Shown here in pieces: positions 35,501 through 41,500 of a stretch of 64,000 nt of DNA. The stretch lies in the NCBI RefSeq assembly GCF_001677475.2, contig NZ_CP015229.1; one strand, 5' to 3'. This DNA comes from Escherichia coli (lineage in GTDB: Bacteria > Pseudomonadota > Gammaproteobacteria > Enterobacterales > Enterobacteriaceae). Made by a program: the position numbers. Within the stretch, counting starts at the first letter, position 1. Every line of letters starts with the position of its first letter.

Positions 35501-38500
35501 AAGTCTGCGCTTTGCTACCCGCCTGCGGGATGGAATTGGCGACTGTAACCGGGTTGCCCTGGAAATGAACGGTTTGTGACATGATTATCTTTCCTGTTTA
35601 CATATAGTTAACGTCACACCTAGTTTATGCTAACTGTCAATAACACAGCAAACGCTATTTGCGCTTAATCCGCAGACAACCGCGACAACAAGGAGTAAAG
35701 ATGAGAACCGTTAAGGTTTTTGAGGAAGCCTGGCCCTTACATACCCCGTTTGTGATTGCTCGGGGAAGTCGCAGTGAAGCGCGCGTGGTGGTGGTTGAAC
35801 TGGAAGAAGAAGGTATTAAAGGCACCGGTGAATGCACGCCGTATCCGCGTTATGGAGAAAGTGATGCCTCGGTAATGGCGCAAATTATGAGCGTCGTGCC
35901 GCAATTAGAGAAAGGGCTGACACGGGAGGAGTTGCAAAAAATTCTCCCTGCCGGCGCAGCACGTAATGCGCTGGATTGTGCATTATGGGATCTGGCGGCG
36001 CGAAAACAGCAGCAATCGCTGGCTGATTTGATCGGCATAACGCTTCCCGAGACAGTCACCACTGCCCAGACGGTAGTCATCGGTACGCCTGATCAGATGG
36101 CCAATAGTGCATCAACACTCTGGCAGGCAGGCGCGAAATTACTGAAAGTAAAGCTGGATAACCATCTTATCAGTGAGCGGATGGTGGCAATTCGCACAGC
36201 TGTGCCCGATGCGACGCTGATCGTTGATGCAAATGAATCCTGGCGTGCAGAAGGGTTGGCGGCGCGTTGCCAGCTATTGGCGGATTTAGGCGTTGCGATG
36301 CTTGAACAACCGCTTCCTGCGCAGGACGATGCGGCGTTGGAGAATTTTATTCATCCGTTACCGATTTGTGCAGATGAAAGTTGTCATACTCGTAGCAATC
36401 TGAAGGCGCTGAAAGGGCGCTATGAGATGGTTAACATTAAGCTCGATAAAACGGGTGGCCTGACGGAAGCGCTGGCGCTGGCGACTGAAGCACGTGCACA
36501 AGGTTTTAGTCTGATGCTGGGCTGCATGTTGTGTACCTCTCGTGCCATTAGCGCCGCTTTACCGCTGGTGCCGCAGGTCAGTTTCGCCGATCTTGACGGA
36601 CCGACCTGGCTGGCGGTAGATGTGGAACCGGCGCTTCAGTTCACAACGGGCGAATTGCATCTTTAGGATGCCAGCGCAGCAAGTTTGCCATCGCAAAGAG
36701 ATATTTTTCGCTGGCTTCGTCGGAGGAGATGGGCGGAAACTCTGCGGTGATGCAATGCAGGTTGAGATCCGCACACCAACTACCGAAAGAGCCAGGTGTT
36801 TCATAACCGACGCTGGTTACCAGAGGCAATTCAAACGCCTGGGCCAGCCATTCGCCTAATTCGCTGTGTCTGGGATCTTCAATACAGGCCAGCGGATCGT
36901 GGAATGAGACCACCCAGGCAGGTTGAATGCGGTGTATAAGCTGGCACAGCGCCTGGGTTTCAGGTTCGGAGCCAGGTTTGTCACCTGTCAGCAATACGAC
37001 ATCACGTTCTTCAGCGGCGCTGTTCCAGCGATAAACGGTTTCACTTTCCTTCCAGTTCGCCGCCGGAAAGTTTCTGTTTAAATCCACACCATTAGCATTG
37101 GCCCGTAACCCCAACTGGCAGCCGTCAGGATTCACACACAGCACCACATGATGACGGCGCAAAGAAGGTGTCAACGTCCGCAGAGCACAGGAGAGCGTGA
37201 CGATCGAAGAGTTTTCATCACCGTGAGTGCCAGCCAGAATCAAACCACTTTCGCGGCTGGCTGCAGGGGCAGGAAACCAGATTAACGGCGCGCCCAATAA
37301 TGAACGTCCGTAATGTTCTGTTCCGGGCGGAAATGCGCCGCGTTCGGCGCGTGGGCGAGTTACGGTCATGATCGTCTCTGGTTCAGGAAGTATTACAGGC
37401 AGTGTTGTGCAAATTTTGCGGATTATCAAATCCTTTTCTTCAACGCTATGTTATCGATCTTGTATCACTTTTTTGATGGAAGTTGTTTGCATTTTCATTG
37501 ATGTGCAGATATTAGAATTGTCGTAATGTTATATACATGGCGTATTTTATTCTTACTGGTTCTACACATGTTAATCGCATCTGATTGATCAGTTCACCTT
37601 AATAAGTTTAATAAATCGTACTGCACATAGTACAGTACGATGGTAGCTATATAATTGATTTACATGAAGAATGGCTTATCGCCATCAGTCCCGGGTTGAT
37701 TGATTCCTATATTCTCACCAATGTGTTTCTCAGGTTTATCGATGATATCTGTAATTAATGCTGCGACACTCTTACGTGATACGATCGTACCTTTGAATGG
37801 TTCATTGCGTGAGGTAAGCTCATAATCAATAATATCTTCATCAGTCAGCCAGGCAGGGCGAAGAATTGTATATTCCAGTCCAGAAGCCTCAATTGCATCC
37901 GCAGCCCTGCGGAATGGTTTTAGGGGTTCACCAATAACTGCATTATTCCATTCGCCAAATTTTCCTGGAACTTCATCATAAATACCGAGGGAAAGAACAA
38001 AGATCAGACGTTTAACATCACAGGCTTTCATCGCAGCGATCACTGAATTTGCCTGAATATCTAAATCTTCCCCCGTAAGGTTGGCATACACAACATCCTG
38101 TCCCTGCATGGCCTGCTTCAGTGCTGCATGATTCAGTACATCCCCCATAATAATCTTGCTATTAGTGGGATAGGGTTTGTGGATTTTTGCTGGCTGACGG
38201 GCAAATAAAGTTTGTTTAATGGTTTGTTTATCTGCCAGTTGATTAATCACATGGCGGGCTATCTGACCGCCAGCACCAAGAATCAGTACATTTTTCATGA
38301 AGCTTTTCCCAGATTATTGGCAGCAATATGCCAGGCCATATCACTATTACGGATTTGAATATGTTTCATTACAGAGTTTCCTCAAAGAACGGAGCTAATA
38401 CTGAAATTGATTCAGCCACATAGACTTTGCCGTCATAAAGATCCATATGGTTTGCGCCTTCAACAATGTGATAGCGTTTATCCTGGCTTGATGCTCGATC

Positions 38501-41500
38501 GTACAGGTCGTCACTCATCCATTTGCTCCCTGCCTGGCTGCCCGCCACAATCTGTATCGGCTGAGTCAGGTACACTTCCGCCATATGGTAAGCATCATAG
38601 GTAATAATCTGGTTAAGGCTGCGCAAAGTAGCGTAACCCGGTGCTGTTGGGTACTGCGCGCGAGGGGTGTGGTAATACTCCCAGGCCTGACGCAGTTCTT
38701 CGTTCAGCGCATCGGACTCCTTCATTGGTGCCAGTGGCATAGTGGCGTATTCTCCGCTGCTAATATCGCTGGTTCGGGCGTTTGAACCCGCGTCAACGTA
38801 TGGTAGGGCATCAATAGATTTCACATTGTTTTCCCAACCATTACGGAACATCGAACCAATATTGACCGCACTAACGGTAGCGATGGCCTTGATGCGGCGA
38901 TCCTGAATGGCAGCATTGGCTGTATATCCTGCACCGGCACAAATTCCCATCGCACCAATTCGGGTATTGTCGACATAAGAAAGCGTTGTCAGGTAATCAA
39001 TCACGGCACTGACGTCTTCAGTACGAATGTATGGGTTTTCTAACTGACGCGGCTCGCCGCCGCTTTCACCTTGATAAGATGCGTCATAAGCAATAGTGAC
39101 AAATCCCTTTTCCGCCAGTTTTTCGGCATAGGTTCCGGCCGTTTGCTCTTTAACGCCTCCACCTGGGTGAGATACCACAATTGCCGGATACTGACGGGTT
39201 TCATCAAATTTTGGAGGGAAATAGATCACTGCAGACAAAGAGATGGTTGGATTATTGCTGTTAGTGAAGCTGACTTTATTATTCATCATTCCGTTCCTCA
39301 TGGAGTTGTCGGTTCGTTTTGACGGTTGGTGATATCACTATAGATATTGATCATTAAGTTGATTAGACCCTAAATTATGATTAGACCTATCATTTAAATG
39401 ATTAATAGATTGTATGGAGATACTGAATGAAGCGTGAAGAAATCGCTGATCTGATGGCGTTTGTCGTCGTTGCAGAGGAGCGTAGCTTCACTCGCGCAGC
39501 AGCCCGCCTGAGCATGGCGCAGTCAGCTTTAAGCCAGATAGTGCGCCGTATAGAAGAACGATTGGGATTGCGGCTTCTGACGCGAACCACGCGCAGCGTT
39601 GTACCCACTGAAGCGGGCGAGCATCTTTTGTCTGTTCTTGGCCCTATGTTGCATGACATAGATTCTGCCCTGACATCCCTGAGCGATCTGCAGAACCGCC
39701 CATCCGGGACAATACGTATTACTACTGTAGAACATGCAGCAAAAACGATATTGTTACCAGCTATGCGCACATTCCTGAAATCGCATCCTGAAATTGATAT
39801 CCAGCTTACCATTGATTATGGTTTGACCGATGTCGTTTCTGAACGTTTTGATGCAGGCGTCCGTCTGGGTGGGGAGATGGATAAAGATATGATCGCCATT
39901 CGAATCGGGCCAGATATACCAATGGCTATTGTTGGCTCACCGGATTATTTTTCTCGTCGAAGTGCTCCAACGTCAGTGTCACAATTAATAGATCATCAGG
40001 CAATTAATTTGTATCTTCCCACATCGGGTACAGCAAATCGCTGGAGATTAATACGCGGTGGACGTGAAGTTCGTGTTCGCATGGAAGGTCAGCTTTTACT
40101 GAATACGATAGACCTGATCATTGATGCTGCAATTGATGGGCATGGATTGGCGTATCTACCTTATGATCAGGTTGAGCGGGCTATTAAAGAAAAAAAACTG
40201 ATACGTGTTTTGGATAAATTCACACCAGATTTACCCGGTTATCACCTGTACTATCCACACCGTCGACATGCTGGCTCGGCATTCTCATTATTTATAGATA
40301 GGCTGAAGTATAAAGGTGCTGTTTAGCACTACTTGCTGATACATTAATTTAATTCTTCTCTTAACGTATTCTTAGTTCCTTTCAACGTTTTGGTCGTTTT
40401 TTATTCTTCGTACAATGGCGACAGATGCTGATTATGATACCGAAAACGGGTTTGAACGTGCGAAGCCCGAACGTAGTGTTCGGAGTTCTATGTGCTTTAC
40501 CGCATTTTGGAGACTATTATTTACACTAAATCTGATTTGATATATTGATACTTAAAACATTTGATGCTTCCTTTGTCACTTTTTTGATGGAAGTTGTTTG
40601 CATTTCTTTAAGGCGAAACAAATAATTACGCATCAATTTTAATGTCGGTTAGAGGGAAACTTATGAAGCACTCTGTTTCAGTCACGTGTTGTGCGCTGTT
40701 GGTCAGCAGCATTTCTCTTTCGTATGCAGCTGAAGTTCCGAGCGGCACAGTACTGGCAGAGAAGCAGGAGCTGGTGCGCCACATTAAAGATGAGCCTGCG
40801 TCGCTGGATCCCGCTAAAGCCGTGGGCCTGCCAGAGATTCAGGTCATTCGCGATCTGTTTGAAGGACTGGTGAATCAGAACGAGAAAGGGGAGATTGTCC
40901 CCGGCGTTGCGACTCAGTGGAAAAGTAATGACAACCGTATCTGGACTTTTACCCTGCGCGATAACGCAAAATGGGCGGATGGCACGCCGGTAACGGCGCA
41001 AGATTTTGTCTACAGCTGGCAACGTCTGGTGGACCCAAAAACATTGTCGCCATTTGCATGGTTTGCCGCGCTGGCGGGAATTAACAACGCACAGGCGATT
41101 ATTGATGGTAAAGCTACGCCTGACCAGCTTGGCGTCACCGCAGTTGATGCCCATACTTTGAAAATCCAGCTTGATAAACCGTTGCCGTGGTTTGTGAATT
41201 TAACCGCTAACTTTGCCTTCTTCCCGGTGCAAAAAGCCAACGTAGAAAGCAGTAAAGAGTGGACGAAACCCGGAAAACTGATCGGTAATGGCGCTTATGT
41301 TCTTAAAGAGCGCGTAGTCAATGAAAAACTGGTCGTGGTACCGAATACCCATTATTGGGATAACGCCAAAACGGTGCTGCAAAAAGTGACCTTCCTGCCA
41401 ATTAATCAGGAATCCGCAGCCACTAAGCGTTATCTCGCGGGGGATATTGATATCACCGAATCCTTCCCGAAAAATATGTATCAGAAGCTGTTGAAGGATA

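Follow-up and report, generated by a model that had tools for sequence, protein, structure and literature searches.

The stretch of DNA examined in this work (the window) comprises 64,000 nucleotides (nt) of an Escherichia coli genome (RefSeq assembly GCF_001677475.2, contig NZ_CP015229.1), and it contains two identical copies of a sequence of 30 base pairs (bp), TCACTTTTTTGATGGAAGTTGTTTGCATTT (the 30-mer), one located upstream of mpaA and the other upstream of mppA. The pair is very probably a duplication formed at the junctions of an insertion, with the two copies (viz. copy A on the mpaA side and copy B on the mppA side) flanking a foreign block of DNA, here called the cassette. Genomes containing the cassette are referred to as the long form and those lacking it as the short form. 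The features of the region are as follows (SDR, short-chain dehydrogenase/reductase; aa, amino acids):

36641 to 37369, minus strand: mpaA, murein tripeptide amidase, left flanking gene
37370 to 37464: mpaA-proximal half of the presumed ancestral intergenic region
37465 to 37494, plus strand: copy A, left junction of the putative insertion; exact match, collinear with the lone 30-mer of outgroups and short-form E. coli
37495 to 40575: putative inserted segment, 3081 bp (3111 bp with one repeat copy)
37495 to 37588: left terminal 94 bp of the insert; no homology to the Raoultella/Klebsiella module versions
37589 to 40326: insert core homologous to a portable module (SDR, alpha/beta hydrolase(s), divergent LysR)
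37660 to 38298, minus strand: SDR/NmrA-like oxidoreductase, 212 aa, intact in the window
38369 to 39301, minus strand: ycjY, alpha/beta hydrolase (RefSeq start at 39289)
39427 to 40326, plus strand: pgrR (ycjZ), LysR-family regulator, divergent from ycjY
40327 to 40575: last 249 bp of the insert on the right; not homologous to other versions of the module
40576 to 40605, plus strand: copy B, right junction of the putative insertion; exact match, holding the -35 and upstream region of the predicted mppA promoter
40597 to 40626, plus strand: predicted mppA promoter, with -35 TTTGCA (40597-40602), an 18-nt spacer and -10 AATAAT (40621-40626)
40663 to 42276, plus strand: mppA, murein tripeptide-binding protein, right flanking gene

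According to this explanation, an ancestral divergent mpaA-mppA control region of 182 bp would have held one 30-mer, which was common to both genes. A foreign segment of ~3.1 kb (carrying the SDR gene, the alpha/beta hydrolase gene(s) and that for PgrR) would then have entered this region in the lineage leading to E. coli, and its insertion would have duplicated the central 30 bp, so that each gene kept its proximal half of the region and one 30-mer. Copy B would remain as the -35 and upstream part of a working mppA promoter, while copy A would be largely a relic upstream of the mpaA promoter. Being direct repeats, the two copies would also permit precise loss of the cassette by recombination, with one copy staying behind, as well as copy-to-copy homogenization, which would be the best account of the 30/30 identity in this strain.

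A search of the window at 0 mismatches recovered the 30-mer at the two positions listed, both on the plus strand in direct orientation and offset by 3111 bp, in agreement with the exact match reported in an earlier reading made from the sequence alone (the sequence-only reading). No third match was seen in the 64 kb when up to 3 mismatches were allowed, and 100 dinucleotide-preserving shuffles gave 0 matches, which upholds the view that this is a non-chance repeat tied to mpaA and mppA. Copy A lies 96-125 nt 5' of the mpaA ATG (37369, minus strand) and 57 nt separate the end of copy B from the mppA ATG (40663). The likeness between the two copies breaks off sharply at the right end, whereas leftward it fades within 7 nt (37 nt at 92%, with 4-5 of these 7 matching, not significant). 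The sequence-only reading had called for a genome-wide search, and had recognized that membership in a widespread repeat family would speak against any link to these genes. In 5418 complete E. coli genomes the 30-mer occurs in only 1-2 places per genome, with a maximum of 4, and in view of these counts and of the two copies in the window, a dispersed repeat family (REP, ERIC or MITE-like) was rejected. A structured RNA was likewise rejected, as no Rfam match was obtained at either copy; the sole Rfam hit in 36500-41500 was a sub-threshold RAGATH-10 match inside pgrR.

If the 30-mer pair marks the two junctions of an insertion, then a single copy will be present at the empty site, the repeats will abut the insert with collinear flanks, and the DNA between them will be foreign to the locus. 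This is the pattern that was found. Of 5426 complete E. coli genomes, 5418 matched a 4.3-kb query spanning the region; a few of these did so over only 28% of the query, the missing part being exactly 3111 bp. A synthetic empty site of 800 bp, consisting of the 400 bp ending with copy A and the 400 bp following copy B, aligned over its full length in one piece in 173 of the 5418 genomes. In these short-form genomes 182 bp separate mpaA from its divergent neighbour mppA, this distance being made up of 95 bp, one 30-mer and 57 bp. As the empty-site alignments retain precisely these three parts, the presence/absence polymorphism of the SDR-ycjY-pgrR block has its breakpoints at the two repeat ends. 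More than 5000 complete genomes, independent of one another, share the long form with its two copies; this, together with the shuffling results, already refutes the suggestion that the repeat is a product of chance or of faulty assembly, to which we attach virtually no probability.

If recombination occurs between the direct repeats, then the cassette will be lost and a single repeat will be left behind. One example of this kind is provided by the short-form strain CP131_Sichuan and the strain BL21, which is of the long form with a K-12-type cassette (described below). The two sequences agree without mismatch in the 1870 bp on the left of the repeat as well as in the 1930 bp from the repeat rightward, and the single repeat of CP131 joins the flank of copy A to the copy-B variant GATGG (30-mer positions 11-15). 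Due to this hybrid structure, the crossover can be placed within the first 11 nt of the repeats, as expected for a deletion, and CP131 thus represents a recent, precise, in situ loss of the cassette. In the distance of 2.4-3.1 kb between the direct repeats, and in the hybrid repeat which reveals the crossover interval (CP131/BL21), this case resembles the known deletion polymorphisms mediated by short repeats (RecA-dependent from the minimal efficient processing segment upward, or through slippage or single-strand annealing), from which it shows no essential difference; the likeness describes the repeat after its origin.

The short-form genomes as a whole contain at least three variants of the single-copy 30-mer, on several flank haplotypes. 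A GCCGG allele, seen in the short-form strains FUJ80154 and 2014C-3075, could have resulted from a crossover in the last 17 nt or could represent an unoccupied site. The IAI39-type allele (T12, A22) matches neither copy and resembles that of Citrobacter, which suggests that short forms of this type are sites that were never occupied. The E. coli population is thus probably a mix of secondarily emptied and primitively empty sites. One short-form strain, MFDS1019527 (locus positions 4653-6098), has a prophage within mppA ~66 nt after the start codon, with a tyrosine integrase gene ~160 nt past the break.

The direction of the event was assessed by an outgroup scan in which MpaA was compared against one genome per species (80 loci). 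In nearly all of these loci mppA is located directly upstream of mpaA, in divergent orientation and ~180-200 bp away. The short form is found in more than 20 genera in all, including Citrobacter, Enterobacter, Lelliottia, Leclercia, Yokenella, Trabulsiella, Kluyvera, Kosakonia, Raoultella and Pluralibacter, and within Escherichia it is also seen in E. albertii, E. whittamii and three further lineages. Wherever the 30-mer is recognisable (viz. in Escherichia, Citrobacter, Yokenella and Leclercia), it is single and 96 nt from the mpaA ATG, and no other genus sampled has the cassette between mpaA and mppA. The only outgroup with the cassette is Escherichia sp. E1V33, whose two copies differ at one position; its copy A and its deletion junction are of the E. 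coli and K-12 types, respectively, and its copy B is of the native type. The short form would, by parsimony, be ancestral and the long form would have arisen by an insertion in the lineage leading to E. coli. In this respect the locus resembles other divergent promoter regions that have been split by an insertion, in that a compact region of 182 bp is divided and each gene has kept its core promoter. It differs from them in that the central 30 bp are kept on both sides and in that the insert brought its own regulator, PgrR.

Besides E1V33, the outgroups which are not of the short form are Salmonella enterica subsp. arizonae and diarizonae. Their mpaA-mppA region holds a different insert of ~3.1 kb with three open reading frames (ORFs) for secreted or lipoprotein-like products (locus positions 3848-7000 and 3561-7000), which looks like a cytolethal distending toxin cluster of the cdtABC type, the middle ORF being DNase-I/CdtB-like. 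In diarizonae the left break of this insert lies inside the 30-mer homologue (immediately after TCAACTTTCTGCCGGA). The mppA promoter blocks are replaced, and no duplication is seen.

The DNA between the two copies is foreign to the mpaA-mppA locus, as the same module is found in other contexts (Raoultella, Klebsiella and Rhizobium) and is absent from this position in other genera. Homologues of PgrR that are 87-89% identical are scattered in Klebsiella, Raoultella, Kluyvera, Enterobacter, Citrobacter, Salmonella and on plasmids. The whole block elsewhere consists of the SDR gene, two alpha/beta hydrolase genes and a divergent LysR gene. It is present on Klebsiella conjugative plasmids (79% nucleotide identity, between galactonate genes and betT), in the Raoultella chromosome (76-80%, beside an old-yellow-enzyme gene) and on a Rhizobium tropici plasmid (69%). 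Neither mpaA nor mppA is located near the block in any of these three, and homology to the Raoultella/Klebsiella versions is confined to window positions 37589-40326. The insert has a lower GC content than its flanks, with values of 0.35-0.45 at both ends and across the greater part of it, rising to 0.52 within ycjY, compared with about 0.54 for mpaA. The genes neighbouring the insert are ycjG, mpaA, mppA and ynaI.

The cassette exists in more than one state. The full form, which is that of O145-type strains, of several other E. coli strains (ABWA45, 2013C-4225), of Raoultella and of the Klebsiella plasmids, includes a tandem pair of alpha/beta hydrolase genes coding for 310 aa and 306 aa. The window lacks the SDR-proximal one of these (about 880 bp; junction at 38298-38369). 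In strains of the K-12/BL21 type a further 665 bp are deleted, corresponding to about 37495-38159 of the window, i.e. the stretch which begins at the 3' edge of copy A and reaches into the SDR gene. This deletion has the junction GCATTT|TATTAG with the microhomology TTGC, and an identical junction is present in E1V33. It removes the SDR 3' end, brings ycjY nearer to mpaA and leaves a 138-bp remnant of the SDR 5' end, which is the RefSeq pseudogene 'NAD-dependent dehydratase, missing C-terminus'. Based on these losses of hydrolase and SDR sequences, there are at least three progressively decayed forms of the cassette in E. coli.

The manner in which the segment entered can be considered from its ends. 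In having the target once in the empty site and twice, in direct orientation, around the insert, with sharp boundaries, the present case is similar to the target-site duplications of transposons and insertion sequences. However, it differs from these in its length (30 bp, possibly 37, compared with the usual 2-14 bp) and in that the insert is an operon-plus-regulator module with ragged ends. The only ORFs within it are those for the SDR, the hydrolase and the LysR protein; no transposase or integrase families were detected in it or next to it by ORF calls, annotation or an NCBIfam scan, and no terminal inverted repeats were found at its ends, where the score was below the shuffled mean. The insertion of a transposon or insertion sequence was rejected on these grounds.

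A different possibility is that the two copies are the attL and attR sites of a decayed integrative element, a circle with a 30-bp core having been integrated by site-specific or Campbell-type recombination; an extension of this idea is that the cassette may still be moving as a circle between strains, with a recombinase acting in trans. The likeness to the attachment (att) sites of islands and prophages lies in the presence/absence polymorphism within a species, in direct repeats that exactly bound the insert and whose excision restores a single copy, as from attL/attR to attB, and in the length of 30 bp, which is typical of att cores and untypical of transposon duplications. Further, the module is present on conjugative plasmids, the mixed state of E1V33, whose copy A is of the E. 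coli type and whose copy B is of the native type, would fit an acquisition through the repeat, and the same intergenic region holds the cdtABC-like insert of 3.1 kb in S. arizonae and diarizonae. However, the Salmonella insert has different breakpoints and no duplication, and an excision to a single core is equally expected, in its precision, from homologous recombination. No integrase, excisionase or transposase is found in the insert or beside it, nor is a tyrosine or serine recombinase, and the target is a promoter region rather than a tRNA or tmRNA gene. In the four Raoultella loci no sequence resembling the 30-mer was seen with up to 8 mismatches, so that these potential donors lack the core; no recombinase flanks the Raoultella/Klebsiella module versions, and the 30-mer lacks the inverted symmetry of a core. 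An origin of the pair from a decayed element of this kind is thus considered unlikely. A related proposal, which we rate slightly lower still, is that the 30-mer pair is a minimal attachment site from which the ycjY-pgrR cassette excises as a circle with one 30-mer and re-enters empty mpaA-mppA sites in other Escherichia strains, either through short homology or with the help of a recombinase acting in trans. If true, this would account for the presence/absence polymorphism, the mixed copies of E1V33 and the spread of a T...GATGG haplotype (see below), and it would mean that a recombinase-less mobile cassette rewires the control of peptidoglycan recycling wherever it lands.

The duplication of the 30-mer at the insertion junctions, the explanation which we favour, leads to the question of what the single ancestral copy did. 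To this end, the short intergenic region was aligned from 26 enterobacterial species. On the mppA side two blocks are invariant, viz. TTGC(A)T at positions 23-29 of the 30-mer and ACAAATAAT, which lies 20 nt downstream and outside the repeat. A promoter scan detected only one sigma-70-like site upstream of mppA (TTTGCA / 18-nt spacer / AATAAT), and its predicted -35 and -10 coincide with these two blocks, the -35 being inside copy B and the -10 outside it. The 3' third of the repeat would thus be the -35 region of the mppA promoter, and the T-rich 5' part is at about -50 to -60 relative to this predicted promoter. Positions 8-15, including the AT/CC difference at 12-13 discussed below, are unconserved across the 26 species. 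Two blocks are conserved on the mpaA side, viz. GCAGTGTTGTGCAAA (37399-37413) and TATCAA (37424-37429; TTGATA on the mpaA strand), both within the 95 bp which mpaA has kept. Of these, GCAGTGTTGTGCAAA is nearly invariant in 25 of the 26 species and overlaps a weak -10-like AACACT on the mpaA strand; its sigma-54 spacing is off by one nt. Copy A, which is roughly 70-100 nt upstream of the likely mpaA start or core promoter, carries an orphan mppA -35 hexamer. No promoter-like site was seen on either strand in 37300-37700, and as copy A has no -10 partner, a promoter based on this orphan -35 was rejected. The suggestion in the sequence-only reading that the motif may be a promoter core is hence supported for copy B, which holds the predicted -35 of mppA, and fails for copy A.

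That reading had also raised the possibility of a shared regulator site, and it took the differing orientation of the motif relative to the two genes as an argument for a protein-binding site. This would be a shared operator, in which one regulator of murein-peptide recycling binds both copies and selection maintains their identity. It agrees with this view that mpaA and mppA act in one pathway, and that the 30-mer is the centre of a common ancestral control region in which TCA (positions 1-3), AAG (16-18) and TTGCAT (24-29) are conserved across genera. The position of copy A would suit a class I activator site for mpaA, and a single ancestral copy could possibly have acted in both directions. 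However, the duplication of one stretch by the insertion would also explain that the copies share the same chromosomal orientation despite the divergence of the genes. Further, the 30-mer has no dyad symmetry of the kind typical of dimeric regulators (its best self-complement is 4 nt, below the shuffled mean), and its conserved part is a -35 hexamer whose conserved -10 exists only on the mppA side. PgrR itself was localized by genomic SELEX (systematic evolution of ligands by exponential enrichment) to the ycjY/ycjZ spacer and not to either copy (PMC5934670).

Evidence bearing on the same question comes from the comparison of the two copies in ten other long-form E. coli strains. Copy B is identical in all ten, with GATGG at positions 11-15, whereas copy A shows at least five alleles among long-form strains:

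Copy A reads GCCGG, 28/30 against copy B: 2/0, 2013C-4225, BL21, CEC15, XJ6.1
Copy A has five changes: ABWA45
Copy A has a 1-nt insertion: MB98
Copy A has C26T, in the otherwise invariant -35: SMS-3-5
Copy A as in the window, GATGG: O145:H28 RM9872, O139:H1 W13-16

Five of the ten copies are thus at 28/30, three have diverged further and only two are the same as in the window; in both SMS-3-5 and ABWA45 the -35 of copy A reads TTTGTA. The constancy of copy B and the drift of copy A argue that only copy B is under strong constraint. The sequence-only reading had proposed conservation across Escherichia genomes as a check; in the long-form E. coli strains sampled it is seen in copy B and not in copy A. 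The frequency of the GATGG form of copy A was determined with a 42-mer made of the copy-A flank and this form, as counts by megablast with a 63-mer are too low, missing strains that lack an exact word of 28 nt. The 42-mer was found in 106 of 5418 genomes (77 exact), about 14 of which are short-form (46 minus 32), and the perfect 30/30 pair is a minority state found in roughly 1% of genomes. An operator kept identical by selection is difficult to reconcile with 28/30 copies in half of the strains and with the further degeneration in ABWA45, MB98 and SMS-3-5, and the A/B identity is already accounted for by the insertion-junction duplication. We therefore consider a shared operator improbable. 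What can be retained of a shared regulator site is that the 30-mer was in all likelihood once common to both genes in the ancestral region; the identity of its two copies would be due to the duplication and not to a recruited motif for co-regulation.

Position 13 is C in the outgroups, and both copies of E1V33 read GCCGG, due to which GATGG is regarded as derived in copy B. Its presence in copy A of the window would then be explained by copy-to-copy conversion. An 8-mer, TTTGATGC, is located at 40560-40567, ~20 nt 5' of TTTGATGG at 40582-40589 within copy B, and one may speculate that a templated switch from this quasi-repeat was the source of the CC-to-AT double change of copy B from the ancestral GCCGG.

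A number of observations weigh against the explanation by insertion and junction duplication. A target duplication of 30 bp is longer than the 2-14 bp which typical transposition produces, and the insert has neither a transposase or integrase nor terminal inverted repeats. Other routes to such a duplication include the fill-in of a long staggered break, capture of the segment between the parts of a small tandem duplication, or the Campbell-type entry of a circle bearing the 30-mer, all of which are possibilities. The donor junctions were not found, as the insert has no homology to the module versions in its outermost 94 bp (left) and 249 bp (right). The polarity of the change, an insertion as opposed to many losses, depends upon parsimony over the sampled taxa, and the assignments of the mppA and mpaA promoters are computational predictions. 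A secondary event, such as conversion, is required for the derived GATGG in both copies of the window, and the haplotype T37452...GATGG recurs in O145, O139 and SMS-3-5. Lastly, sites of the IAI39 type may never have been occupied, in which case not all of the 173 short forms are deletions.

Neither the repeat nor the insertion polymorphism was found described in the searchable literature. The class of mechanism is an ordinary one, viz. an insertion-junction duplication which now mediates deletion, and the present case is a newly documented instance of it. Based upon it the exact repeat can be explained without invoking a new regulator. The genes pgrR, ycjY and that for the SDR would then have been inserted into the control region of mpaA and mppA in the E. 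coli lineage; they are missing there from other Enterobacteriaceae and from about 3% of the complete E. coli genomes. The PgrR regulon reported from genomic SELEX includes ycjY-ymjDC-mpaA among other operons (PMC5934670). As the cassette appears to be an insertion of the E. coli lineage, the reported control of mpaA by PgrR through the ycjY-ymjD-ymjC-mpaA transcript would be a recent and partly K-12-type-specific rewiring, and the arrival of PgrR with its own operon would provide an evolutionary frame for the published regulon. A further prediction is genetic instability of the cassette, which should be greatest in strains that, like this one, have a 30/30 pair. For the design of reporter and deletion constructs, 40597-40626 is marked as the conserved predicted mppA promoter.

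Binding of the sigma-E holoenzyme has been reported at the ycjY/ycjZ spacer (PMC5493296). A table from chromatin immunoprecipitation and sequencing of CRP in the enterotoxigenic E. coli strain H10407 lists CGTGAACCGGGTCACA under ycjZ/mppA (PMC4287617). In the window the exact match to this sequence is at 50828-50843, which is 10 kb from mppA and unrelated to the repeat, and a CRP site was accordingly rejected as an account of the repeat. In some RefSeq records a fragment of a QueH pseudogene is marked in the right-hand end of the insert (about 40424-40516), which was unsupported by the NCBIfam scan. At 37615-37641, 19 nt past the SDR stop on the minus strand, there is a perfect 9-bp hairpin (ATCGTACTG, a 9-nt loop and CAGTACGAT), which failed the T-run criterion of a terminator scan. 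It lies within the Raoultella-homologous stretch, is among the sequences removed by the 665-bp deletion, and could be a terminator between the SDR gene and mpaA.

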